The notes beneath the pieces are model-generated. The model worked only from the letters and a program-made list of their open reading frames with translations, ran no database searches and was not told the origin of the DNA. Shown here piece by piece: positions 3,080 through 54,113 of a stretch of DNA of 64,000 nucleotides. Each line of letters starts with the position of its first letter. Within the stretch, counting starts at the first letter, position 1. A program made the translations under genes and the position numbers. Source of the DNA: Thermoplasmata archaeon (GTDB lineage: Archaea > Thermoplasmatota > Thermoplasmata > Halarchaeoplasmatales > Halarchaeoplasmataceae); NCBI GenBank assembly GCA_003552585.1, contig PUNK01000015.1, positions 12,513 through 76,512 on the forward strand, read 5' to 3'.

Positions 3080-3177
3080 TATGTAATCTGCGGGAGTCTA
3101 ATAAAGGTTATCAGGACTAGACCTAATTTTAAACTATCTAAAGTTTTGGACCTAGGTGTAAGATGTGGTACCTACGA

Positions 3178-8718: not shown

Positions 8719-9498
8719 ATGAGATTACTGCGTGATAAAAAATCTTTAACGAAGTTCCTTCTACTCTATAAAATGGCTACAGATGAGCCTACCAGGCTCA
8801 TAGAACTTGCAGATAGTTTGGATATGAGTGAGCAAGCAGTATCCAATTATGTATCTACTATGGAGGAAGAAAATCTAATCAATACGGGCGGGAAAAGATA
8901 TAAGCCTACACATAAGGGCATGGACTTTATAGAAGAAATCTTCTCTAAGCTAGGAGACTTTTTAGAGAGCGCTAGTAAAACTATAGATGTCATATCCACG
9001 TGCGCAGCAATAGCGGGGGAACCTATACGTAAAAATGACAAAGTTGGTCTTTTCATGAGAGATGGATTCCTACATGCCTCCAATAAAAAAACGTCGTCGA
9101 TCGGCATTGCACTCAATGATGCGGATACTGGGGAACCATTGCTTGTTGGATATCTCCAAGGTATAACCGAGATGGATGTTGGATGCATTTTTCTTATCTC
9201 TGTTGCCCAGAAGAATGAGGTAGAGGAGATCACTAGAGACCTAAAACAGAAATTGGATTCGATAGAATATGATATACTGACAGTAGAAGAAGAATGGACT
9301 CTTGGATTAGCTAACATGATAGATGCGGATGCCAATATAAAATTCGCGCCTATTTCAGCTTCATTAAGAGCTGCAGAAAAAGGACTTGATGTAGCCTTTA
9401 TCCTTACAGAAAACAGTTTGGAAAGAACCATATCCACAATAAGCAGATGGAACAGTGGATGTGCTGAGAAATATCACATAAATTACAAGATAGTTTAA
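8719..9498 (+). CDS. Winged-helix transcriptional regulator with an uncharacterised C-terminal domain
   Basis: N-terminal wHTH-like region (TRLIELADSLDMSEQAVSNYVSTMEEENLI). The C-terminal 170 aa has no recognised motif. Confidence 0.4.
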   Translation: MRLLRDKKSLTKFLLLYKMATDEPTRLIELADSLDMSEQAVSNYVSTMEEENLINTGGKRYKPTHKGMDFIEEIFSKLGDFLESASKTIDVISTCAAIAGEPIRKNDKVGLFMRDGFLHASNKKTSSIGIALNDADTGEPLLVGYLQGITEMDVGCIFLISVAQKNEVEEITRDLKQKLDSIEYDILTVEEEWTLGLANMIDADANIKFAPISASLRAAEKGLDVAFILTENSLERTISTISRWNSGCAEKYHINYKIV

Positions 9499-11483: not shown

Positions 11484-12524
11484 TCATCCTAGTTTGACAT
11501 CTACGACAACATGAAATACGTGAGGTGCATAGGATTTGATCTTTCGAACATCGATTACCTCAAAATCGGTAATTATATTCTCAGTAAGCTCTCTATCGAT
11601 TTGTGTATGGAACTCCCTATCTAAAACAATGGTGTGATAATGAATGAGCCCTTCATCTCCGATTAGTTTTAAAGCTTTTGGTAAAAATCTCCACGTGTCA
11701 TGTAGATATCCCATGACCACTCTATCCGCTATACCACATTTGTGAAAATCTCTGTTATCACCATTCCAAGGTTCCACTATATCCATAACATCGTTTAATA
11801 TTGTATTCTCTTTCAGATATCTATAAGCTGTATCATTTATCTCAAGCGAGTAGATCTTTTCAGGTTGAGAATGGACGGCCATAGGTAGGGAAAAATAACC
11901 AATACCTGCGAACATATCTACGATGGTCTCCCCTTTTTCAGGAACTTTGGCTATCCTAACTCGTTCATCTATGTTACCACTTGAAAACATCAAACAAGAG
12001 ACATCCAATTTGTATTTGACGCCGTTCTCTATATGAACTGTTTCCGTAGATCCTCCATAAATCACCCTTACTTCAGGTTCGCGACAGACTCCTTTAATAG
12101 GACCCTGATCAAGGACCGTTTTCACACCCAACACATCTGAATACGCTTTCCCTATTTTCTTTTCATGTTCTTTTAAACTGTTTGGCAATTTAAGCAATAA
12201 TACATCTCCAATTTTCTCCCACCTTCGTGGAACTTTTTCAGTTGGTATACCTTTCTTTCTAAGTATTTTAACTACATTTTCAAAGGGAGTAAGTTGCTCA
12301 TTCCTCTCAGGAAGTTCTTCCCGCCCTATCCCTCCTTCTTTAACTGGTATCAATAGATAGCCTTCTTTTTCAAGAGGGATGCGGTCGGAGTCTAAATTTC
12401 CTTCTTTTTTCAATTCTCTCATCACAATCTCCCCTTTCTCTTTCGGTACCTTTAAGACATGTCCCCTTTTCATATAATAACACAAACTCACTTTATCACA
12501 TAAATATTTTATACCTTCGAACAA
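11484..12524 (-). CDS. tRNA (guanine37-N1)-methyltransferase of the Trm5/Taw2 family
   Basis: Class I SAM methyltransferase core IVDMFAGIGYFSLPMA, with the N-terminal Trm5-type domain. A paralog lies at 31149-32129. Confidence 0.68.
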   Translation of the reverse strand: MFEGIKYLCDKVSLCYYMKRGHVLKVPKEKGEIVMRELKKEGNLDSDRIPLEKEGYLLIPVKEGGIGREELPERNEQLTPFENVVKILRKKGIPTEKVPRRWEKIGDVLLLKLPNSLKEHEKKIGKAYSDVLGVKTVLDQGPIKGVCREPEVRVIYGGSTETVHIENGVKYKLDVSCLMFSSGNIDERVRIAKVPEKGETIVDMFAGIGYFSLPMAVHSQPEKIYSLEINDTAYRYLKENTILNDVMDIVEPWNGDNRDFHKCGIADRVVMGYLHDTWRFLPKALKLIGDEGLIHYHTIVLDREFHTQIDRELTENIITDFEVIDVRKIKSYAPHVFHVVVDVKLG

Positions 12525-22240: not shown

Positions 22241-23890
22241 TTGAAGAAATATACATTTAACGGCTATATAAAGGCAGAGGTTGAAGGACAGTTAGAAGGC
22301 TATCTAACTTTAAAGGATGGTATGCCTCGAAATGCAGTTCTTTATCCACCTGCAGGAAATGAAATAAAAGGGCAGTCAGCTCTCAAAAAGATCAGGGACA
22401 TGGATAACATGGAAGAGCTCAGGATCCAGGTTCACACAAATGTAGATATAGATTCACTAATATCTAGTATCCCTGGTAAAATTCCTGTGCAAGCCATCGA
22501 GGAAAGTCAAGAAGATACGTTGAAGGTGGAAGGAGAGAAGAAGACTGCAGAAAGAAAGAAGTTGGAGGAGGAGCTAGAAAGCAGAATAATAGAACAAGAG
22601 ATGAAGGAATCTAAGGTCGCTGAAAAAGAGATAGAGGTCTACGACACTTTGATCAAAGAAAGAAGAGGTTTGAAAAGTGAAGAACCTGGTAAATTTCCCG
22701 ACAAATTCTCATTTGAGAACTTCGTTGTTGGTCCAAATAACAAGTTTGCATATGCTGCTGCTAGGGAGATTGCTCGATTTCCAGGTGATTCGTTTAATCC
22801 TCTTTTTATTACAAGTTCTTCAGGTTTGGGGAAAACTCATCTTCTAAAAGCTATAGGCAACTATCTAAAGAAAAGAGATCATGATTTGGAAATTAGTTAT
22901 CTTACAGCCTCGAATCTTTCGTCCATTTTGTCTAATCAAGATATAAAAGAGCTAAAAGAAGAGGTAAATAAAGCTAACGTCCTTCTATTGGACGATATAC
23001 AGTTCCTAGCTAATAAAATAGATCTTCAGGACGAAGTATTTCATATTCTAAATAACTTATTAGAAAAAAAAGGACAGGTTGTTCTGACTTCTGATCGGCC
23101 TCCCGACCAGATACCTTCCCTGCAAGACAGGATGGTGACTCGCTTCAAATCAGGGTTGGTAGTTGATATCAGACCACCTACATTTGAAACCAGGGTATCA
23201 ATAATCGATAAAATACTTAAAGAATATGACATCAAAGTTGAGCAAGATGTGAAGGAGTACATCGCTCGCCATGTGAAAAAAAATGTGAGGGAGCTTGAAG
23301 GTGTTTTAAACAGGATTCTGGCCTTTTCTTCCCTCCTTGAAGAAGATATAAGTAAAGAAGTGGTTAAAGAAAGTCTTAAACACTATTCTGACGAGATCGA
23401 TAAAGGTGAAAAGAAAGTCAGTTCGTACACCTTTAAAGTCGGTAGAAGTTATCTGATAGAGGAAAGAAGACCTGATAAAGGATTTGAAATACTTAAAGGT
23501 ATGAGAGATGATGGAAAAACTTACATTTTCTCCCGTCTGAATCCTAATAGGATAAAGGAGGATTATGGAGTTAAAGATAGTGAGATTTATTGGTTGACAT
23601 CCCGTGATAGTCAAAATTATATAACAGTTTCTCCGAACTTAGAGAATCTGTCCTGGCGTCTCGAAGATTTACTAAAAGAAGATGGAGTAGTACTGCTTGA
23701 TGGACTAGAATATCTTATCAGCAATACTGGATTTGAACCTACTATACAGTTCTTGCGACATATGATAGATATGGTATCAGAGACGGAAACTGTATTCTTG
23801 TTGACCGTCAGCCCCGACGCTCTTGAACGCAAGCATGTAAGCATTTTAGAAAGAGAGATGGAAGTAATTTCAGAAGAGGATAGTTTATGA
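22241..23890 (+). CDS. Bacterial DnaA-like AAA+ ATPase (domain III only) fused to a novel coiled-coil N-terminus and an archaeal DUF835-like C-terminal domain
   Basis: FENFVVGPNNKFAYAAAREIARFPGDSFNPLFITSSSGLGKTHLLKAIGNYL (Walker A), LLLDDIQFLANK (Walker B), VLTSDRPP (sensor I), RFKSGLVVDIRPPTFETRVSI (box VII) and NVRELEGVLNRI (sensor II) are near-identical to the bacterial DnaA consensus. No domain IV HTH. The C-terminus VVLLDGLEYLISNTGFEPTIQFLRHMIDMVSETETVFLLTVSPDALE resembles DUF835. Confidence 0.72.
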   Translation: MKKYTFNGYIKAEVEGQLEGYLTLKDGMPRNAVLYPPAGNEIKGQSALKKIRDMDNMEELRIQVHTNVDIDSLISSIPGKIPVQAIEESQEDTLKVEGEKKTAERKKLEEELESRIIEQEMKESKVAEKEIEVYDTLIKERRGLKSEEPGKFPDKFSFENFVVGPNNKFAYAAAREIARFPGDSFNPLFITSSSGLGKTHLLKAIGNYLKKRDHDLEISYLTASNLSSILSNQDIKELKEEVNKANVLLLDDIQFLANKIDLQDEVFHILNNLLEKKGQVVLTSDRPPDQIPSLQDRMVTRFKSGLVVDIRPPTFETRVSIIDKILKEYDIKVEQDVKEYIARHVKKNVRELEGVLNRILAFSSLLEEDISKEVVKESLKHYSDEIDKGEKKVSSYTFKVGRSYLIEERRPDKGFEILKGMRDDGKTYIFSRLNPNRIKEDYGVKDSEIYWLTSRDSQNYITVSPNLENLSWRLEDLLKEDGVVLLDGLEYLISNTGFEPTIQFLRHMIDMVSETETVFLLTVSPDALERKHVSILEREMEVISEEDSL

Positions 23891-24309
23891 ACAAAAGGGA
23901 TGAAAAAATTGCACTCCAGTCTAAGGCGTTCAACCTGTTCGAAGAAGGTAAAGTGCCGGTTGAACTCGTTCAAGAAGGTATCTGCACTAAGGAAGAGGCA
24001 AAAGAATTGTTCATGAGCTATCAAGAACTGCTTAAGTGTGAGGTTGATAAGGAGGTTTTCAATGAAAAACTATCCACTCAGTTGGGACTAATAGGCTCTA
24101 GATTGGCCCAGATTGAACTTAAGATTATGAATTCCATTTTTCTTCCCAAAAGCAGAGAATGCAAAAATTGTGATCACACCGGGATATATGGAGTTGGAGT
24201 GGTATGTCAGCAATGTGGCTCGGTGGAGGTTCATGTTCCGATGGAGATAGGAGAAAACATCGTAGAAAACATAGGTTTCACGCCTTTCAAAGATGAGGAA
24301 GAGGATTAA
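23887..24309 (+). CDS. Small protein with C-terminal zinc-ribbon (CKNC..CQQC), co-transcribed with the DnaA-like gene
   Basis: ATGA overlap with the upstream gene. Motif RECKNCDHTGIYGVGVVCQQCG. Confidence 0.45.
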   Translation: MNKRDEKIALQSKAFNLFEEGKVPVELVQEGICTKEEAKELFMSYQELLKCEVDKEVFNEKLSTQLGLIGSRLAQIELKIMNSIFLPKSRECKNCDHTGIYGVGVVCQQCGSVEVHVPMEIGENIVENIGFTPFKDEEED

Positions 24310-24330
24310 GAAAAGGATTTTGAAAAAAGA

Positions 24331-24371
24331 GGGGGCAGTAGCCTCGATGGTCCCCCGTCATAGCATTTTTC
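24331..24371 (+). terminator. GC hairpin (GGGGG-N16-CCCCC) followed by a T5 run, a likely terminator of the DnaA-like operon
   Basis: gggggcagtagcctcgatggtccccc at 24331-24356, then cattttt at 24365-24370. Confidence 0.35.
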
Positions 24372-24737
24372 CGACCGCGGTGGACGATGGCTCATGGATC
24401 AGCAGGTTGGAGGAAAAATATAAAAGGTTGAGGTATCCAGAGCATCATTATCTCCGCTGAATTGAAGATGTGGAAAAGATCTCCTAAAGTGAATTATCGG
24501 AAATGCTACTTCCATTAATGTTAACCCTCTTTCACAAGGGATCCTGGAAACGGGGATTATTTTTTCCATCATGGCTTACGCCGCCCTCGTGCAATATATA
24601 GGTACATCTACCCTATTTATAATTTATGTTTATTTGCTGAACTTGCACAAAGTAAAAAATTTTGATATTTTGATTGGAAAAACAAATTTTTCTCGATTTT
24701 AGAGGATATTCATCCCAAAAAAACTAATTAACACTCT

Positions 24738-26633
24738 TTGTTCCAAGAACTCATGGGGCGATTCTGCAGTAGGTGTGGGGCCCTTCTTCCTCCTAATAAA
24801 AACGAATGTGTTAGATGTAGCTCCGATAATGTCTATAGTGAACGGGGGATATTCCCTTACAAAAAAGTTAGACCAGTGCAAGAGCAGCTAATGGATGACT
24901 CTCGAAAAGCATTCAACGAGGGAAAAATTATACTCGCTAACGCCCCAACAGGGATAGGTAAGACTGCTGCTGTTTTGACAGCAGCCGCTGAAGTCCTAGA
25001 CAATAAAAAACTCCTCTTTTTAACCAGTAAACAGTCCCAACATAGGATGGCTATAGAAACAGTTAAGAAGATGCCCTCTCAGATCAATGCAGTCGATGTA
25101 ATAGCCAAGCAGCATATGTGTCCATATGAGGAATCGAGGATGCCCTACCCTGTTTTTGAGCAGTTCTGCGAGAGGGTTGGGAAGAAAAGATGTAATCTCT
25201 TCAATACCCAGATGAAATCTGTAGCAGATGAGTTCAAAGAAAAATCATTGCATGTGCATGAAGTTATGAGGCAGTCCAAAAGAGCAAATGTCTGCCCTCA
25301 CAAAACCGCACTCTCTGCAGCAAAAGATTCGGAAGTGTTGGTCTGTGATTTCAACTATGTATTCTCAGATATTCAAGAAAAAATATTTGAATTCTTAGAC
25401 CTAAAATTGGAAAATACCCTATTGATAGTCGATGAAGCCCATAACCTTCCAGATAGAGTGAGATCCCAGCTGGAAAGCAGCATTTCTATCCCACTGCTAA
25501 AAGATTCTTTTAGACTCCTTGACGATGTAAATTCAGAACTTGCAGGATTCGTAAAAAGGTTCTCTTCCCTATTGGGTGATGTAGAAAAAGATGAAAAAAC
25601 AGTGGAAAAGGATTTCATCGATGATATGGTAACCGTAGCCTTACGGGGAGGATTTGGGAGATATGAGAACCTCGAAGAGCTGATGGTTGATCTTGAAGTG
25701 GCCTCCTATAATATTCTAGAGCACGATGCATCTGCCACTGCACCATTGAATCTTTATAATTTTTTTAAAGCTTGGAGAGAAGAGGGAAAAGAAGTATTTA
25801 GAGGTATAGAGAACGACCCCATTACTGTTAGGACCTCATTGCTCGACCCTTCACGTCTGACAAAAAACATCTTTTCCATGGTAGGAGGTGCTATTCTCAT
25901 GAGTGGAACATTGCATCCAGGAGAGATGTATGCCGATCTACTTGGTATAAAAGGTGCTTTAATCAAAAATTATCCCTCTCCTTTCCCAGAAGAAAATCGG
26001 ATGATCTTAAGTGTGAACGGTCTTACAACATCTTACAAACAAAGAGGGATGATGATGTATCAAGCTTATGCTAATGCTATATCCGACGTGGCGAATAACA
26101 CACCCGGTAATACCGCTGCTTTTTTCCCGTCATACGGGCTTCTAAACAGAATACTCGAAAGACTTAGGATGGTGCATCTAAAGAATAAATTGCTAATCGA
26201 AGACCGATCTATGAGTAAAGTAGAAAAAGAGAGTATGGTGGATGCACTTGCACGATCACCAGATAAGTTGTTGATAGCGGTTCAGGGAGGAAGCCTATCA
26301 GAAGGTGTTGACTATCCTGATAATATGCTTTCTGCTGTTATCATCGTAGGAATACCTTTTCCTCCCCCTTCTCTAGAATTAAAGGCTTTAGAAGATTATT
26401 ACACAGATAAATTCGGAGGTAAAAAGGGATACCTTTACACAAGAGTTTACCCTGCCCTTAATAGAGTTCTACAAGCTGCAGGTCGTTCTATAAGATCCAA
26501 AGAGGATAGAGCGGTGATAGTATTGATGGACGAAAGATTTAACAAAACTTTTTATCGATCAGCTATGCCTGATAGATTCGATTATGAATTAGTTGAAGAT
26601 ATGGTTGAAAAAGTTAAAGAGTTTTTTGAATGA
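24738..26633 (+). CDS. XPD/Rad3-family (DinG-like) ATP-dependent 5'-3' DNA helicase with N-terminal zinc-ribbon extension. The likely start is ATG 24753.
   Basis: Walker A ANAPTGIGKTAAVL. FeS-domain cysteines HMCPYEE..FCERVGKKRCNLF..ANVCPHK. DEAH box LIVDEAHNL. C-terminal motifs GGSLSEGVDYPD and QAAGRSIRS. Confidence 0.82.
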   Translation: MFQELMGRFCSRCGALLPPNKNECVRCSSDNVYSERGIFPYKKVRPVQEQLMDDSRKAFNEGKIILANAPTGIGKTAAVLTAAAEVLDNKKLLFLTSKQSQHRMAIETVKKMPSQINAVDVIAKQHMCPYEESRMPYPVFEQFCERVGKKRCNLFNTQMKSVADEFKEKSLHVHEVMRQSKRANVCPHKTALSAAKDSEVLVCDFNYVFSDIQEKIFEFLDLKLENTLLIVDEAHNLPDRVRSQLESSISIPLLKDSFRLLDDVNSELAGFVKRFSSLLGDVEKDEKTVEKDFIDDMVTVALRGGFGRYENLEELMVDLEVASYNILEHDASATAPLNLYNFFKAWREEGKEVFRGIENDPITVRTSLLDPSRLTKNIFSMVGGAILMSGTLHPGEMYADLLGIKGALIKNYPSPFPEENRMILSVNGLTTSYKQRGMMMYQAYANAISDVANNTPGNTAAFFPSYGLLNRILERLRMVHLKNKLLIEDRSMSKVEKESMVDALARSPDKLLIAVQGGSLSEGVDYPDNMLSAVIIVGIPFPPPSLELKALEDYYTDKFGGKKGYLYTRVYPALNRVLQAAGRSIRSKEDRAVIVLMDERFNKTFYRSAMPDRFDYELVEDMVEKVKEFFE

Positions 26634-31148: not shown

Positions 31149-32129
31149 ATGCTCTGCGTTAAAGTTCCTAAAAGTGAAGGAGAAAAGGTTAGACTAAAAC
31201 TTTTGCACCATTCTTTACTTTCCCTAAATTATAAAATCGAGTCTGAAGGAGATACACTTTTCATCCCAGTTACACGTGACCCAGGAAATCTAATAAAATA
31301 CCCCCTTGTCCAGCGAGAAGTTGAAGAACTTAAAACTGATACACTACCCGAAGAGTTAGAGAAATTGATCCCATCCAGCTATGATATAGTCGGAGATATA
31401 GCTTTAGTAAAAGTACCCGACCAGTGGGCATCTTGCAAAGAAGACCTGGGGAAGGCCATACTTATGCGCCACAAAAATGTGAATACAGTTCTGGAGGATA
31501 CAGGAGTACATGGGGAGTTTAGAATTAGGGAGGTTAAGTACATGGCAGGCGAAAGAAAAACTAGTACGGTGCATCGAGAGTATGGAATCGAGATTGAGGT
31601 GGATCTTGGTGAGGTCTACTTTTCACCACGATTAGCGACAGAAAGGTGGACTGTTACCCAGAAGGTGAAAACAGGAGAAAAAGTTATGGATATGTTTTCA
31701 GGTGTTGGGCCATATACTCTTCTTATTGCCAAAAATAAAAAAATCGATATCATCCATGCAGTGGATATCAACCCAAAGGCAGTAGAATTTTTAAAAAGGA
31801 ACGTTCAGAGGAATGGTGTGGAGGCTTTAGTAAAAATTTGGCAAGGGGATTCTCGAAAAATTTGTGAGAAGGTGAAAGTAGACAGGGTTATAATGAATCT
31901 GCCTCATTCTGCAAAAGACTTTTTAAATCACGCCTTTAAAGTATTAAATAAAAAGGGGGCTATACACTATTACGAGATTCTTTCTCCTGACGACATATCG
32001 AAGAGAGAAAAACAGTTAATTGAAGATATTAAGAAAAAGGGACGCAATGCCCGTATTGTAGAGAAAAGAGAGGTTCGAACCTATTCTGCTGAAGAAGTGC
32101 AAATCGCTTTTGATATAATTATCGAGTGA
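31149..32129 (+). CDS. Second Trm5/Taw2-family tRNA methyltransferase (paralog of 11484-12524)
   Basis: VMDMFSGVGPYTLLIAKN..AVDINPKAVEFLKRNVQRNGV is the same SAM-MTase core as the other copy. Confidence 0.68.
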   Translation: MLCVKVPKSEGEKVRLKLLHHSLLSLNYKIESEGDTLFIPVTRDPGNLIKYPLVQREVEELKTDTLPEELEKLIPSSYDIVGDIALVKVPDQWASCKEDLGKAILMRHKNVNTVLEDTGVHGEFRIREVKYMAGERKTSTVHREYGIEIEVDLGEVYFSPRLATERWTVTQKVKTGEKVMDMFSGVGPYTLLIAKNKKIDIIHAVDINPKAVEFLKRNVQRNGVEALVKIWQGDSRKICEKVKVDRVIMNLPHSAKDFLNHAFKVLNKKGAIHYYEILSPDDISKREKQLIEDIKKKGRNARIVEKREVRTYSAEEVQIAFDIIIE

Positions 32130-33085: not shown

Positions 33086-34312
33086 GTGTTTAAAATGGAT
33101 ATAGATCCTAGCACAACAAAATATGTAATTCATACATCAATGAAAGCTGACGGGGTCGTGGAAAAGCCCGATGTCGTGGGAGCTATCTTTGGTCAAACTG
33201 AAGGATTATTAGGTGATGAACTTGATCTGCGTGACCTCCAAAAAAGTGGAAGGATGGGGCGCATAGAAGTGGAAGTTAGTTCGTCAAAAGGCAAGTCTTC
33301 AGGATCCATAATATTACCTTCCAGTCTTGATCTGGTAGAAACTTCGATACTGGCAGCTGCACTTGAAACCATAGATAGAATAGGCCCCTGTCGAGCTCAG
33401 GTTACTGTTGATGAGATCAGGGATGTCAGAGAATCTAAAAGAAGGAAGATCGTTGAACGTGCTAAAGAATTGCTCACAGATGTCATGGAAAAGGGCGACT
33501 TACCTTTGGGCAATATATCTGAAGTGGTACGTTCAGAGGTCCAGATGAAAGAAATAACTGACTTCGGTGACGAAAAATTGCCTGCAGGACCAAACGCTCA
33601 GGAGTCCGATGCAATAATCGTTGTCGAAGGGCGATCAGACGTTCTTAATCTTTTAAAATATGGCATTAAAAACTCGATCGCAGTAGAGGGAACAAATATA
33701 CCCGAAAGCATTAAGAAACTTTCATCTGAAAGAGTCACCACCGCCTTTGTAGATGGTGATAGAGGTGGTGCACTTATCCTAAAAGAACTCCTTGAAACTG
33801 CTGAAGTTGACTATGTAGCACAAGCACCTGAAAATACTGAGGTCGAGGAACTAACACAGAAACAGATAATAAAAGCACTGCGTAGTAAGATACCCATAGA
33901 CCAGTACATAGAGATGTACGAGATAGACACTGGAAAAAAGGAAGAGCAAAGGAAAAGTGACTGGAAGAGAAAGGCCAAACGAGAAAAAAAAACGGAAATA
34001 AAGGAGAAAGAAATTGAACAAAAAAGTAAGTCCGAGAATCTGAAATCGCTCCTACATGATATAAAAGGAGACAAAAAAGCACTTCTCTTAGATTCTGATG
34101 ACCAAAGAAAAGACGAGGTGGCTACGAGAGAATTGGCGGATAGGTTGAAAAAAGGTGACGGAATAGAAACAGTGGTGTTCGATGGAATAATAACTCAGAG
34201 ACTGGTAGATATAGCAAGTAATGCAGGAATAAAAACCCTTGTTGCACGTAGAATCGGTAATATACCAAAACTCCCAACATCCTTGGAGCTTCTTTCTTTA
34301 GAAGAACTCTAA
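33086..34312 (+). CDS. dnaG: Archaeal DnaG-type (Toprim) primase with a Lys/Glu-rich insertion near the C-terminus
   Basis: N-terminal VIHTSMKADGVVEKPDVVGAIFGQTEGLLG and Toprim IIVVEGRSDVLNLLKYGIKNSIAVEGTN...FVDGDRGG. Confidence 0.82.
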   Translation: MFKMDIDPSTTKYVIHTSMKADGVVEKPDVVGAIFGQTEGLLGDELDLRDLQKSGRMGRIEVEVSSSKGKSSGSIILPSSLDLVETSILAAALETIDRIGPCRAQVTVDEIRDVRESKRRKIVERAKELLTDVMEKGDLPLGNISEVVRSEVQMKEITDFGDEKLPAGPNAQESDAIIVVEGRSDVLNLLKYGIKNSIAVEGTNIPESIKKLSSERVTTAFVDGDRGGALILKELLETAEVDYVAQAPENTEVEELTQKQIIKALRSKIPIDQYIEMYEIDTGKKEEQRKSDWKRKAKREKKTEIKEKEIEQKSKSENLKSLLHDIKGDKKALLLDSDDQRKDEVATRELADRLKKGDGIETVVFDGIITQRLVDIASNAGIKTLVARRIGNIPKLPTSLELLSLEEL

Positions 34313-40385: not shown

Positions 40386-42449
40386 ATGCAAAAGTACAGC
40401 CATGAAGAGATAAGAGAAAGGTTTCAGAACTTCTTTGAAAGTAAATATTCAGCGGACATCATGAGGATCGCAGATAATTACCCTGATGAAATGTCCCTTT
40501 ATACTCCTTACCAGGAGTTAGTTATGTTTTTTGGTGATGATTTTCCAAGATTTATTTTGAACAATCCTAAGAGATCTTTCGCGATCGCAGAAGAAGTCAT
40601 GCTTGATATAGCTGGTCAGGAAGAAAAGGATATGGAACTACATTTCAGGATCATAGAGCTGCCACAACCAAGGAATAAAACCATTCGAAATTTAAGGGCG
40701 GAGGATCTTGCAAAATTTATAGGCGTTGATGGCCTAGCTAGAAAGGTAACTGAAGTAAGACCTCGGTTGAGTGTTGCTGCCTTTCAATGTTTAAGTTGTG
40801 GGGAGATTACCTACGAACACCAAAAAAGCCAGAGTATGGATGTACCTAGTGGATGTCCAAACTGTGGTAAAGAATCGGGAAAAAAGGCAAAGTTTCTTCA
40901 TTTGCTAGAAGAATCGGAATTTAAAAATTACCAAAACATAGAGATCCAAGAAAGCCCCGAAGGATTGAGGGGGGGAGATCAACCTCAAAGACTGAGAGGT
41001 TGGATAGAGGATGACCTGGTTGGTAGAATATCACCAGGAGACCGTATCACAATTAACGGAATCCTGGACGGGACCCCTAAAAGAGGAAGAGGAGGAACGG
41101 AATCAAGGACCTTTGATATATTCATGAGAGTAAATAGTATAGAAGTAAAGGAATATGAATATGAAGAGGTAGAATTACAAAAAGAAGATAAGGAAAAAAT
41201 AGAAGAAGTTGGTAGTAACCCTCGGATTTTTTCTAAAATAGTATCTTCCATCGCACCTAGCATTTATGGATTGCCAATGGAGAAAACAGGATTAGCATTA
41301 CAATTGTTTGGCGGTGTAAGAAAGATAATGCCTGATGAGCAGAAGATAAGGGGTGATATACACGTATTACTTGTGGGAGATCCAGGGACCGCTAAATCAC
41401 AGCTTCTCAGATATATCTCCGATCTTTCACCCCGAGGGATGTACACATCAGGTAAGGGATCTACGGGTGCCGGATTGACTGCTGCTGCAGTTAGAGAAGA
41501 AGTTATGGGGGAGAGTCGATGGATCCTAGAGGCAGGAACCCTTGTGCTTGCCGATAAAGGCATAGCAGCGGTTGACGAGCTCGACAAGATGAGAGATGAA
41601 GACAGAAGTTCGATGCACGAAGCTATGGAACAACAGAGTATATCAGTTGCTAAAGCCGGAATAAATGCTAGACTAAACTCCAGGTGTGCTCTACTAGGGG
41701 CAGCAAATCCACAATATGGGCGATTTGAGATCCACGAAAACATCTCACAACAGATCAACCTGCCTCCGCCTCTGATTTCAAGATTTGACCTAATCTTTGC
41801 TCTCATGGACAGACCGGATAAAACAAAAGATAAAGCAATTGCAGAACACATTTTAAAAACACATCAGGCAGGGGAGGAACTCCAAAATGAACCGGAACTG
41901 GAAAAAGAGGAAAAACAATACTTTTCCAAAGATTTTTTAAGAAAATATATAGCCTACACTAAATCTATAAGCCCCATAATGACGGAGGAGTCCATGGATA
42001 AGTTAGAGGATTTTTATCTAAATATTAGAACAAGTGGAAGTGATTCTAACACCATCCCAATAACCGCAAGACAACTTGAATCTCTCATCCGATTGTCAGA
42101 GGCAAGTGCTAGAGCTCATCTCAGAGAAAAAGTAGTTAAAGAGGATGCTGAAAGAGCTATCAATGTGACCGAATATTTCTTAAGGCAAGTTGCTTCGACC
42201 GAAAGCGGATTGGATATTGATATGGTGGCGGCAGAATATGGCTCGTCAGAAAGAACCCTTGTTCATCAACTGAGTGATATAATCGACGAGTTAGATAGAA
42301 TTCATGAAGGAGGAGTCCCTGAAAAGGAGATAATCGAAGAGGCGGAAAAAAAAGGTTATACCCGGGAAAGTGTAAAGAAGGAATTGAGTCGTATGGGTAA
42401 CAGGGGACAGATATATTCCCCTATCCCTGGAAAATACAGAAAAACTTGA
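40386..42449 (+). CDS. mcm: MCM replicative helicase
   Basis: Zinc finger CLSCGE..CPNCG, Walker A IHVLLVGDPGTAKSQLL, Walker B AVDELDKM, arginine finger SRFDLIF, C-terminal wH. Confidence 0.92.
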   Translation: MQKYSHEEIRERFQNFFESKYSADIMRIADNYPDEMSLYTPYQELVMFFGDDFPRFILNNPKRSFAIAEEVMLDIAGQEEKDMELHFRIIELPQPRNKTIRNLRAEDLAKFIGVDGLARKVTEVRPRLSVAAFQCLSCGEITYEHQKSQSMDVPSGCPNCGKESGKKAKFLHLLEESEFKNYQNIEIQESPEGLRGGDQPQRLRGWIEDDLVGRISPGDRITINGILDGTPKRGRGGTESRTFDIFMRVNSIEVKEYEYEEVELQKEDKEKIEEVGSNPRIFSKIVSSIAPSIYGLPMEKTGLALQLFGGVRKIMPDEQKIRGDIHVLLVGDPGTAKSQLLRYISDLSPRGMYTSGKGSTGAGLTAAAVREEVMGESRWILEAGTLVLADKGIAAVDELDKMRDEDRSSMHEAMEQQSISVAKAGINARLNSRCALLGAANPQYGRFEIHENISQQINLPPPLISRFDLIFALMDRPDKTKDKAIAEHILKTHQAGEELQNEPELEKEEKQYFSKDFLRKYIAYTKSISPIMTEESMDKLEDFYLNIRTSGSDSNTIPITARQLESLIRLSEASARAHLREKVVKEDAERAINVTEYFLRQVASTESGLDIDMVAAEYGSSERTLVHQLSDIIDELDRIHEGGVPEKEIIEEAEKKGYTRESVKKELSRMGNRGQIYSPIPGKYRKT

Positions 42450-43845: not shown

Positions 43846-44880
43846 GTGTTCGATATGAGTGAGATTGACGATAAAGAAAACTACCTGCTTACAACTTGGT
43901 ACGGTGTATTTATTATAAGAGATGAAAAAATAATTGAAAAAAGACTGTTTCCCAAAAATCCAGATGTCATATCCAAAAAAAGGATGATGATCAAACAAGG
44001 ACTTATCCTTCCAGAAGAAAAAGAATTGGCAGAAATATTTCGTGGAAACATATGTGTAACCACAAAAAGATTAGCTCGGTTGGGTGAGTTTAAAGAGAAC
44101 ATCGAATTGGATAAAACTCTGCTAAATGACTTGTCGTTCGATGATGATATTTTAAGGGAAGCCCTTTTAATTCAAGGTGAAAAAGAACTAAAAGACTCTG
44201 TGGATACGGATAAACATCTTGGAAGGGCTGTTGAGACTATCAGGGATCTAAATGAAACTATAAACATATTGACTGAACGTTTACGAGATTGGTACTCTCT
44301 ACATTATCCAGAGCTCGAAGAGGATACGAACAGTAAAAAATTCGTAGAGCTAATTGCTGAATTCGGAGATAGAGAAAGCATAGTAGAAAATACAAACATC
44401 GATGGTAATACCGTTGGAAAGAATATTACTGAAAATGAAAAAGAACTTTACAAAAGACTTGCCAAAGAGGTTAAATCCATGATGGATTTTAAAGAAATGT
44501 TGACCGGATATGTAGAAAAATCCATCAAAGAAACAGCACCTTCATTGACAAAATTGACTGGTCCTAAACTAGGCGGTGAATTAATATCACACGCCGGTTC
44601 TTTAAAAAAATTGGCTAGTATGCCAGCAAGTACGATCCAGGTACTAGGTGCAGAAAAATCTCTATTCCGACATCTTGAAAGGGGAACTGATCCGCCTAAG
44701 CACGGATATATTTTACAGCATCCGATTGTACATGGAGCTGCACCTAACAAAAGAGGGAAAGTAGCAAGAACTTTTGCAAATAAAATAGCTATAGCTGCTC
44801 GAGTCGATTATTTTGGAAATAGAGATATAGGAGACAGACTCAGGGAGGAACTAGAGTCGAGATTGGCAAATCTGAAGTGA
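43846..44880 (+). CDS. nop5: C/D box sRNP protein Nop5 (Nop56/58)
   Basis: NOP domain LTGPKLGGELISHAGSLKKLASMPASTIQVLGAEKSLFRHLERGTDPPKHGYILQHP. No fibrillarin gene follows it. Confidence 0.82.
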   Translation: MFDMSEIDDKENYLLTTWYGVFIIRDEKIIEKRLFPKNPDVISKKRMMIKQGLILPEEKELAEIFRGNICVTTKRLARLGEFKENIELDKTLLNDLSFDDDILREALLIQGEKELKDSVDTDKHLGRAVETIRDLNETINILTERLRDWYSLHYPELEEDTNSKKFVELIAEFGDRESIVENTNIDGNTVGKNITENEKELYKRLAKEVKSMMDFKEMLTGYVEKSIKETAPSLTKLTGPKLGGELISHAGSLKKLASMPASTIQVLGAEKSLFRHLERGTDPPKHGYILQHPIVHGAAPNKRGKVARTFANKIAIAARVDYFGNRDIGDRLREELESRLANLK

Positions 44881-45392: not shown

Positions 45393-46628
45393 TTATGTCC
45401 CTTCCTCCCATCCAGTTAGATAATCCCTTTGTTCTTTTGTTAATTCATCGATTATTATCCCTCTAGTCTCGAGCTCTAGCCTTGCTACTCTTTCATCCAG
45501 TTTTCTAGGTATATTATGAACACCTGGTTCAAGTTCTTTGTTCTTCATTATATACTCCGCTGCTAGCATTTGTAGGGCAAAGCTCATATCCATTATTTCT
45601 GCTGGATGTCCCTGCCCTATAGCAAGATTAACCAGCCTTCCATCAGCTAAAAGATATATCTTTCGTCCGTCATTCATCTTGTACTCTTTTACATCTTCCC
45701 GAACAATTCTGCTGGAAACGGATAAGTTTTCTAACACTGTTTTAGAGATCTCATTATCAAAATGTCCAGAGTTAGCCAAAATACAGCCATCTTTAGCAAC
45801 AGATAACTACTCTTCATCAACAACTGATTTACAGCCAGTAGCAGTCACAACAAAGTCAGCTTTTTTAATTCCCTCATGCATGGGCAAAACCTCAAAACCA
45901 TCCATATTAGCCTCCACTGCTTTTATTGGGTCAACTTCGGATATCATGACATTTGCTCCCATCCCTTTAGCTCTCATAGCGATACCTCTTCCACACCACC
46001 CATAACCTCCAACTAGGAAATTTTTCCCACTAACCTGTAGATTTGTTGCAGTCAACAGACCATCTATGGTGGACTGGCCTGTACCGTATCGGTTATCAAA
46101 AAGATGTTTCATGTAAGCGTCATTAACAGACATAACTGGAAATTCTAATTTCCCTTCAGATTCCATTGCCCTGAGACGGACGATTCCAGTCGTTGTTTCT
46201 TCAGCGCCTCCTTTTATGTTATCGAGTAGATCTCTCCTCGTAGTATGAACTAAAGATATGAGATCACCCCCATCATCTATGATAACGTCAGGATCCTGAT
46301 CGAGTATAAGATTTAGATTTTTGTAATATTCCTCTTCTGACTCTCCTCTCTTTGCATAAACATCGAGACCATATTCCTCTCTAAGTGCTTTTGCCACGGA
46401 ATCATCTGTAGATAAAGGATTGCAACTTGCCATTTTTACAGTAGCACCTGCTTCTCTAAGAGATAACCCTAAAATCCCTGTTTTTGCTTCAACATGAAGA
46501 GCCATGGATATTTTTACACCATCAAGATGTCCTGCTTTCTTCACGGATTCTCTAACCCTCTTTAGAACTTTCATGTGGTCTTTAGCCCATTTCAATCTTT
46601 TCACACCTTTTTCTACATCTCTTTCCAT
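45393..46628 (-). pseudogene. ahcY: S-adenosyl-L-homocysteine hydrolase interrupted by an in-frame TAG at 45807-45809
   Basis: The upstream ORF has the AhcY N-terminal and NAD domains (..NFLVGGYGWCGRGIAMRAKGMGANVMISEVDP..TATGCKSVVDEE). The stop is followed 27 nt later, in the same frame, by [20 protein letters not shown], which is the conserved AhcY continuation (..MKDGAILANAGHFD.EI). Confidence 0.75.
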
Positions 46629-53135: not shown

Positions 53136-54113
53136 TCAAGGATTGATTTCTATCCCTATCTCCTCTGCAATTTCTTTATATCTGTTTCTAATGGTTACTT
53201 CTGTCACACCTGCTACTTCTGCTATAGCTCGTTGAGTTCGAGGAGTCCCTTCAACTATTGAAGCGATATATATCGCAGCAGCTGCAACACCTGTAGGACC
53301 CTTACCTGAAGTCAGGCCCAATTCTGTTGCCTTAGAGATTATATCTTCACCACGAGAGATCACATCCCTATCTAGTTCTAATTTGCTACAGAATCTAGTT
53401 ATGTACTCTTCCGGTCGGGTAGGCATAAGTTTCAAGCTCAATTCCCTAGATAAAAATCTGTAAGCACGTCCAATTTGTTTTTCATCTGAATCAGCGGCTT
53501 GTGATATTTCAGTAAGGGTTCTTGGTACATTGCATTTCCTGCAGCCAGCATAAAGGGAAGACGCTATCACAGTTTCTATACTCCTTCCCCGGATGAGGTT
53601 CTTTTCAACCGCTTGACGGTAGATCATAGCTGCAGTCTCCCTTATGCTACGTGGAAGTCCCATCTTGGAAGAAAGTCGATCTAATTCTCGAAGTGCGGAG
53701 GCAAGATTTCTTTCTGTAGCATTTGATATCCTAATCCTTCTATGCCACTTCCTTACTCTGTATACCTGGCCTCTATTCTTATGAGGTATCGTCCTTCCAT
53801 AAGCATCTTTATTTTTCCATGATATATGTGTAGAAAGACCTTTGTCGTGGGTCAAGTAATTCATAGGAGCACCAGTCCTAGCTCGATTCTCTCTTTGGAC
53901 ACTGTCGAACGCGCGCCATTCAGGCCCTTCATCTATATAGTAATCGTCTATAACAAGGCCGCACTTTTCACAAATAACTTCACCACGTCCATAGTCCTTA
54001 GATATATGCAATCCTCCGCATTCAGGACACTCTTTTATTTTTTCAACACGTACTTCTTTCTCCCTTTGCATAATATCTCCATCAATAGGGTTTTTTCTCC
54101 ATCTTCGACACAC
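53136..54113 (-). CDS. tfb: Transcription initiation factor IIB
   Basis: Zinc ribbon CPECGG..CEKCG, B-reader, two cyclin folds ([20 protein letters not shown] ... [38 protein letters not shown]). Confidence 0.92.

Follow-up and report, generated by a model that had tools for sequence, protein, structure and literature searches.

Archaeal sRNAs that mask ribosome-binding sites by means of their loops have been described, sRNA154 and sRNA41 of Methanosarcina mazei being examples (review PMC5867862). For the sRNAs of Thermoplasmatota, nothing relevant was found in the literature. To our knowledge, hardly any structured non-coding RNAs of uncultured archaea have been catalogued. A gene for an archaeal sRNA is expected to have a BRE/TATA element about 25-30 nt upstream of its start and an oligo-T terminator. 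In the archaeal replication origin, oriC, ORB or mini-ORB repeats, typically inverted, flank an AT-rich unwinding element next to orc1/cdc6, while an origin of the bacterial type has a cluster of DnaA boxes (consensus TTATCCACA) and a DnaA protein with the DNA-binding domain IV.

The locus described here belongs to a Thermoplasmatota MAG of ~39% GC, the closest relatives of which are MAGs from soda lakes and hypersaline habitats, including Candidatus Halarchaeoplasma, Natronoplasma and Saliniplasma. Proteins encoded in the window, ie the whole 64-kb stretch of DNA that was analysed and to which all coordinates refer unless another locus is named, are about 45-60% identical to those of the closest relatives. 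The segment 24323-24590 is probably an independent, unannotated minus-strand gene for a structured non-coding RNA of ~268 nt. The element is most likely previously undescribed, and has so far been found in four halophilic Thermoplasmata genomes.

The non-coding gap and its surroundings

The candidate gene lies in a non-coding gap of 443 bp, which runs from the stop codon of a gene for a 140-aa protein, at 24309, to the ATG of the XPD helicase gene, at 24753. Neither a tRNA nor a convincing small ORF is present between these positions; a 57-aa minus-strand ORF and a 55-aa plus-strand ORF were considered as genes and rejected, as they are not conserved. The features of the gap and of the operon that adjoins it are as follows.

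22241-24309, plus strand: operon, convergent with the candidate RNA, the upstream neighbour of the gap
22241-23890, plus strand: gene for the DnaA-ATPase/DUF835 protein (Pfam PF00308 and PF05763)
23887-24309, plus strand: gene for the 140-aa Zn-ribbon protein, second gene of the operon
24323-24590, minus strand: candidate structured non-coding RNA gene, ~268 nt, extending from slightly upstream of helix P1 through the U6 run
24323-24328, minus strand: U6 run, terminator-like, directly after P1
24329-24350, minus strand: 3' strands of helices P2 and P1, CCAUCGAGGCU..UGCC-CCCUC
24395-24439, minus strand: hairpin B, covarying stem UGGAU/AUCCA, 35-nt U-rich loop with UUUUCCUCCAACCUGC
24464-24484, minus strand: hairpin A, stem GGAGAU/AUCUUC, loop CUUUUCCAC, motif UUUC(C/A)ACAU
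24542-24555, no strand assigned: ORB-like motif, minus-strand reading CCCCGUUUCCAGGA, unique in the window, inside the variable part of the RNA
24566-24576, minus strand: 5' strand of P2, AGCCAUGAUGG, pairing with 24340-24350
24579-24588, minus strand: 5' strand of P1 (GAGGG, bulged C, GGCG), pairing with 24329-24337
24614-24627, minus strand: putative RNA promoter, a TATA-like box ATAAATTATAAATA with all-A/T 8-mers upstream of GAGGG
24717-24731, plus strand: putative promoter of XPD, an A-rich, TATA-like box AAAAAAACTAATTAA that lies 22-36 nt upstream of the ATG at 24753

For the DnaA-like protein, Pfam gave only PF00308 and DUF835 and no match to the DnaA DNA-binding domain IV. The predicted structure of the 140-aa protein has a pLDDT of 65, and Foldseek returned only generic Zn-ribbon matches, with E > 1. 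Nothing relevant was found in the literature on DUF835 together with DnaA. The DnaA-ATPase/DUF835 gene (operon at 22241-24309 in the window; also L006 and L079-L081) is widespread in Thermoplasmatota and is always preceded by a TraB-like gene and a gene for a 200-aa membrane protein. It is followed by the 140-aa Zn-ribbon gene in the clade of the window, and elsewhere by genes for Ras/Roc-type GTPases and a 150-aa protein.

On the other side of the gap, the XPD genes of relatives (L001-L003) have different upstream genes, with no similarity to the gap, so that the junction with XPD is a synteny breakpoint. A genome scan with XPD as the sole synteny anchor found nothing. An earlier note on this DNA had considered a long regulatory leader of the helicase. 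That suggestion is not supported, since XPD of the relatives is without the element and XPD in the window has a promoter-like box of its own; that box, AAAAAAACTAATTAA, resembles the CGAAAAACCTAAAAC found at the corresponding position before XPD in L001 and L002.

The GC content is 43.7% over 24310-24579 and 45.9% over the element (24323-24590), compared to 39.1% for the 64-kb window; among segments of 268 nt, the element ranks in the top 2.7%. The GC enrichment of the first ~270 bp noted earlier is therefore real but modest, and "markedly" was too strong a word for it. The AT-rich tract at 24596-24737 has 24.6% GC (bottom 0.2%). It is most likely a divergent promoter region, with putative boxes for the RNA and for XPD, at the synteny breakpoint. 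Those two promoters would account for a tract that had been proposed as a DNA-unwinding element. The direct repeat said to lie in it is present, as ATTTTGAT occurring twice within 24659-24674, although two copies of an 8-mer are unremarkable for 24%-GC DNA; the doublet lies in the spacer between the promoter boxes of the RNA and XPD, and nothing was found that supports it as a functional repeat.

The other motifs of the earlier note can likewise be located. The GGGGG/CCCCC hairpin is there with its T-run (GGGGG at 24331-24335, CCCCC at 24352-24356, T5 at 24366-24370), the GGAA/TTCC dyad GGAAATGCTACTTCC lies at 24499-24513, one nucleotide from the position first given, and the ORB-like 14-mer TCCTGGAAACGGGG was confirmed at 24542-24555. 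None of the three is present in the homologous elements of the relatives L004, L005 and L010. What does exceed chance, and had been missed, is the long-range complementarity between 24329-24350 and 24566-24588, together with two conserved loops. The suggestion of an unannotated non-coding RNA thus survives as a reading, but on the opposite strand and on other grounds than the GGGGG hairpin and the GC content: it is supported by conserved covarying helices and by promoter and terminator signals.

Several further genes of the window may be recorded here. A DnaG-like Toprim protein, MCM, Nop5 and TFB are encoded at 33086-34312, 40386-42449, 43846-44880 and 53136-54113, respectively, MCM and the DnaG-like protein being 9-16 kb away from the element. 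Two paralogous genes for Trm5/TYW2-type tRNA methyltransferases lie within 20 kb (11484-12524, minus strand, and 31149-32129, plus strand). S-adenosylhomocysteine hydrolase appears to be split between adjacent minus-strand ORFs of 273 aa (45807-46628) and 128 aa (45393-45779), the first of which stops midway in the NAD-binding domain; a frameshift, a pseudogene and an assembly error are all possible reasons.

Homologous elements, fold and strand

Homologous elements are found directly downstream of the 140-aa gene in the window, L004 (=L012=L024), L005 (=L011) and L010 (=L022=L023), and in all three relatives the gene before the 140-aa gene is that for the DnaA-ATPase/DUF835 protein. These are the four distinct sequences used in all comparisons. 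The element begins 8-20 nt after the stop codon of the operon in the window, L004 and L005, and ~85 nt beyond it in L010. Read on the minus strand, all share the 5' end ACGAGGG-GG-UAA-CCAUGG and the 3' end GCCAUGGUG-CCCCUC followed by a run of U6-7. The window, L004 and L010 have long forms, with 260-272 nt between the helix ends, and L005 has a short form of 96 nt. The 16-mer UUUUCCUCCAACCUGC, which corresponds to plus-strand positions 24402-24417 in the window, is identical in the three long copies. It has 44 matches in viral contigs, a number that is by our own estimate roughly that expected by chance; the 16-mer contains a Shine-Dalgarno-like motif. No conserved ORF was found in the element among the homologs.

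In L004, L005 and L010 the element is followed not by XPD but by a 79-aa ORF with its own promoter, which indicates that the element travels with the DnaA-like operon. A remnant of this 79-aa gene, which follows the element in L004 and L005, was sought in the window by tblastn, and no trace of such a pseudogene was found. Beyond the 79-aa and DUF4342 genes, L005 (3666-3760, minus strand) and L010 (2486-2580, minus strand) have a 95-nt tRNA match of 48.6 bits, which presumably contains an intron. The relatives L008 and L009 have the gene pair without the element, which is therefore dispensable. P0132-P0134 have a different form of the operon and no element, and P0125 and P0126 were left out of the comparison as their contigs end before the region.

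No Rfam 15 family reached its gathering threshold anywhere in the window, which answers the covariance-model scan proposed in the earlier note, and nothing was found on the elements of L004, L005 and L010. With E raised to 10, only noise appeared over 24200-24850. A weak cmscan match to the box C/D sRNA sR52 (24298-24349, plus strand) scored 17 bits, with E 0.48, where the gathering threshold is 50. It extends into the end of the 140-aa gene and, unlike box C/D sRNAs, has no proper C or D boxes; it was judged to be noise. The full-length alignments obtained with MAFFT were not good enough for a covariance model of the whole element, and the model was consequently limited to hairpin B. In 269 kb it recovered only the three copies of the window, L004 and L010.

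The predicted fold consists of a terminal helix, P1, an adjoining helix, P2, and the hairpins A and B. Unconstrained MFE folding recovered P1, P2 and hairpin A in all four sequences and hairpin B in the three long ones. The GAGGG/CCCUC part of P1 is kept in all four genomes, and the inner pairs (P1b) covary. Both strands of P2 are the palindrome CCAUGG in the relatives; in the window they have become UGAUGG and CCAUCG, changed on both sides and still complementary. That these arms have lost their palindromy while remaining complementary to each other fits a helix rather than two protein-binding palindromes. The loop motif UUUC(C/A)ACAU of hairpin A occurs in all four genomes on stems that differ, ie GCCUUA/UGGGGC in L010 and the AGAGG/CCUCU type in L004 and L005. 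Hairpin B is found in the long forms only, with a U-rich loop of 32-35 nt. Taken together, the invariant loops and covarying stems indicate selection on the RNA fold.

On the minus strand, the MFE z-scores are -3.81 for the window, -4.40 for L004, -3.89 for L010 and -3.07 for L005, and in the window none of 200 shuffles folded as well. In each of the four sequences the plus strand scored less well. A shorter fold, 24315-24570, gave z-scores of only -0.4 and -1.2 because P1 was cut off, and is superseded by the folds of the full element. In the helix alignment 98.9% of the cells pair and 11 of 26 pairs have changes on both sides, which none of 500 shuffles reached, and controls slid out of register were 38-66% paired; the alignment was built by hand and fitted to the structure, so that these figures lean towards it. 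The alignment of hairpin B is 91% paired with three double changes, and 22 of 500 shuffles reached that percentage. The covariation statistics are weak, since only four distinct sequences are available. Conserved secondary structure with compensatory changes, as expected for an archaeal sRNA gene, is found in these four sequences with the hand-fitted alignment.

The strand is indicated by the wobble pairs. With the minus strand as the RNA, the five helices have 101 Watson-Crick pairs, 10 G·U pairs and one mismatch; with the plus strand, each of the 10 wobbles turns into an A·C mismatch and no G·U pair arises. The G·U count is biased in that folds of the minus strand served to define the helices; about seven of the ten G·U pairs are internal to helices, however, and so are not artefacts of the way the helix ends were drawn.

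Transcription signals are found on the same strand. In each of the four genomes, a run of T6-T7 occurs on the minus strand 0-4 nt after P1; no such run follows the stop codon in the element-less L008 and L009. In the window, 8-mers made up only of A and T begin 33-39 nt upstream of GAGGG, and those of L004 and L010 begin 34-36 nt upstream of it; L005 has no clean TATA box where one would be expected, only a weaker one that lies nearer. The promoter and terminator expected of an sRNA gene are therefore represented by sequence signals only, the TATA-like box in three of four genomes and the T6-7 run in four of four. The TATA-like boxes of genes in the window most often begin 28-29 nt before the ATG, and on that basis the RNA would start 0-5 nt upstream of P1. 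Transcription is thus predicted to begin 0-5 nt upstream of ACGAGGG (about 24590), with the TATA-like box at 24614-24627 as the driver, and would end at the U6 run (24328-24323) directly after the terminal helix. Conservation, structure and strand of the candidate RNA, and the presence of promoter and terminator signals, are what the computations show.

Alternative explanations

It is unlikely that the element is a structured 3' UTR or terminator on the plus strand, which would stabilise or terminate the mRNA of the DnaA-like and Zn-ribbon operon and involve no separate gene. The element does always follow the operon, only 8-20 nt past the stop codon in three of the four cases, its plus-strand folds are stable in L004 (z -3.64) and L010 (z -3.41), and a T3-T6 run lies on the plus strand just before the 3' strand of P2. 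Set against this are plus-strand z-scores of only -1.40 in the window and -1.47 in L005, the ~85 nt that separate the L010 element from the stop codon, the conversion of all 10 wobble pairs to A·C on that strand, and a TATA-like box and a T-run after the terminal helix that are both in keeping with the minus strand. It is most improbable that the element is a MITE-like remnant, mobile or selfish and in decay, or is non-functional DNA of another kind. Its ends do form an inverted repeat (GAGGGGG-CACCATGG ... CCATGGTG-CCCTC), the internal length varies from 96 to 272 nt, and only some of the relatives have the element (L008 and L009 do not). However, it is single copy in the 64-kb window and in all loci compared, BLAST gave no match in plasmid or phage collections, and it keeps one syntenic position in four genomes, between which protein identity is 50-60%; the combination of dispersed copies, terminal inverted repeats and target-site duplication that marks mobile elements was not found. 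The selection on the RNA fold indicated by invariant loops and covarying stems also argues against it.

The earlier note had also raised a replication origin. A DNA-level element of that kind, whether an origin with an ORB-like box and an AT-rich unwinding region or a platform to which the adjacent DnaA-like ATPase binds, is very unlikely. Like an archaeal oriC, the locus has an AT-rich stretch (24.6% GC) and one 14-mer that resembles the ORB core plus G-string, and a gene for a DnaA-family ATPase adjoins the element. In addition, 8 of the 9 nucleotides of the bacterial DnaA box, TTATCCACA, recur in the loop of hairpin A written as DNA, TTTTCCACA (CTATCCACA in L005). Unlike an archaeal oriC, there is a single motif, which is not conserved in the homologs, and no inverted pair; the two promoter-like boxes would explain the AT tract. 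A second ORB copy is absent, with none of up to two mismatches within 12 kb, and the ORB core occurs at the chance level (22 found, 22.4 expected). No Orc1/Cdc6 was identified among 36 ORFs scanned against Pfam, including all ORFs of at least 230 aa, and no orc1/cdc6 gene lies nearby, so that neither the two or more ORB repeats nor the adjacent orc1/cdc6 of an archaeal oriC were found. GC skew tracks the gene strand and has several local extremes, none specific to 24.5 kb, and no local inflection was separable from gene orientation; a 64-kb window is also too short for this analysis. An origin of the bacterial type fares no better, as there is one DnaA-box-like site of 8/9 per element, situated in an RNA hairpin loop, and the DnaA-like protein consists of PF00308 and DUF835 only, with no match to domain IV. 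Finally, DNA sites would have no need of helices that covary with strand-specific G·U pairs, and in the window the CCATGG arms have stayed complementary to each other after ceasing to be palindromic.

Proposed action and comparison with other RNAs

Expression of the candidate RNA and its targets are inferred, and what follows is a proposal for how such an RNA might work. The closing rod of P1 and P2 would join the two RNA ends, and hairpins A and B would project from it, A exposing the loop UUUUCCAC and B a large loop, rich in U, that contains the invariant UUUUCCUCCAACCUGC. UUUUCC is common to both of these loops, and in one of them CCUCC, the core of the anti-Shine-Dalgarno sequence, is bordered by U-tracts. 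A Shine-Dalgarno-like 5-mer is found before 21% of the genes in the window, compared to a background of 5.8%. Given that the RNA exists, a trans-acting regulatory sRNA may tentatively be proposed, the C/U-rich loops of which could pair with purine-rich ribosome-binding regions of the GGAGG type, and so block translation or change mRNA stability. The U-tracts adjoining the loops could bind an Sm-like protein. No conserved mRNA target was found in the DNA searched, ie the window and the loci of the relatives. The best complementarity in the window, 14 of 15 positions between loop B and the Walker-A codons of the DnaA-like gene (22820-22836, plus strand), is absent in L004 and is, for that reason, probably due to chance.

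The main alternative to pairing with ribosome-binding sites is protein binding, possibly with products of the neighbouring operon. In its strongest form, which we regard as unlikely, the element (and possibly the 413-nt RNA described below) would be the dedicated RNA partner of a module composed of the DnaA-family AAA+/DUF835 protein and the Zn-ribbon protein (or a Ras-like GTPase), with the ATPase or the Zn-ribbon protein binding the conserved UUUUCC-type loops. If true, this would be a new RNA-protein system of halophilic Thermoplasmata and not a generic sRNA that is merely syntenic with the operon.

Whichever way it acts, a probable minus-strand RNA gene at this locus has several consequences. 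The candidate has no Rfam family, and a loop of 16 nt that is invariant across genomes with proteins ~55% identical represents a strong sequence constraint. If expressed, it would be the first candidate riboregulator with anti-Shine-Dalgarno-like loops for Candidatus Halarchaeoplasmatales. It offers a handle on the function of the adjacent DnaA-ATPase/DUF835 operon, and a false lead to an origin of replication has been removed from the contig.

Weak matches to the hairpin-B model (13 bits, E about 0.4) led to a conserved non-coding region of ~413 nt in three other loci, all on the minus strand (L006 9439-9851, L014 1556-1967 and L019 3222-3633). The three copies are 89% identical with 1-nt indels, have a fold z-score of -4.48 and have no match in Rfam. 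The possibility that the CCUCC look-alike in L014 and L019 is part of a 137-aa ORF was refuted by the 1-nt indels in the three-way alignment, and because of these indels the region is more likely to be another non-coding RNA. It has an 11-bp terminal helix GAGGGUGAACA/UGUUCACCCUC, a CUUUUUU...AAUUUCCUCCUCA hairpin and a CCUCC hairpin loop. Between it and the last gene of the operon sits a strong conserved hairpin, CCCCUGGGACUGUUC...GAACAGCCUCAGGGG (L014 ~1437-1480, L019 ~3105-3150, L006 ~9320-9370), which could be a terminator or another small RNA.

The 413-nt candidate RNA may be a larger relative of the element in the window. Both lie downstream of, and convergent with, the DnaA-ATPase/DUF835 operon, in the same position and orientation. 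They have the same GAGGG...CCCUC terminal helix, with the TATA-like box 30-32 nt upstream in the 413-nt type, a YCAUGR palindromic helix adjoining P1, and a CUUUUUU...AUUUCCUCC hairpin loop. The 413-nt RNA differs in being 1.5 times longer, in having no U-run after P1, and in that its P2-like helix closes the 5' domain only. Since no direct similarity between the two types was detectable with nhmmer, their kinship is put forward as a hypothesis.

Compared to sRNA154 and sRNA41 of M. mazei, the candidate has no sequence or Rfam relationship. It is larger (268 nt), with a long terminal rod and an unusually large loop of 35 nt, and comes from an uncultured lineage. It resembles them, however, in being a stand-alone intergenic candidate whose stable stem-loops would expose C/U-rich sequence complementary to ribosome-binding sites (PMC5867862), and, like them, it is restricted to one clade; in the candidate there are two such loops.
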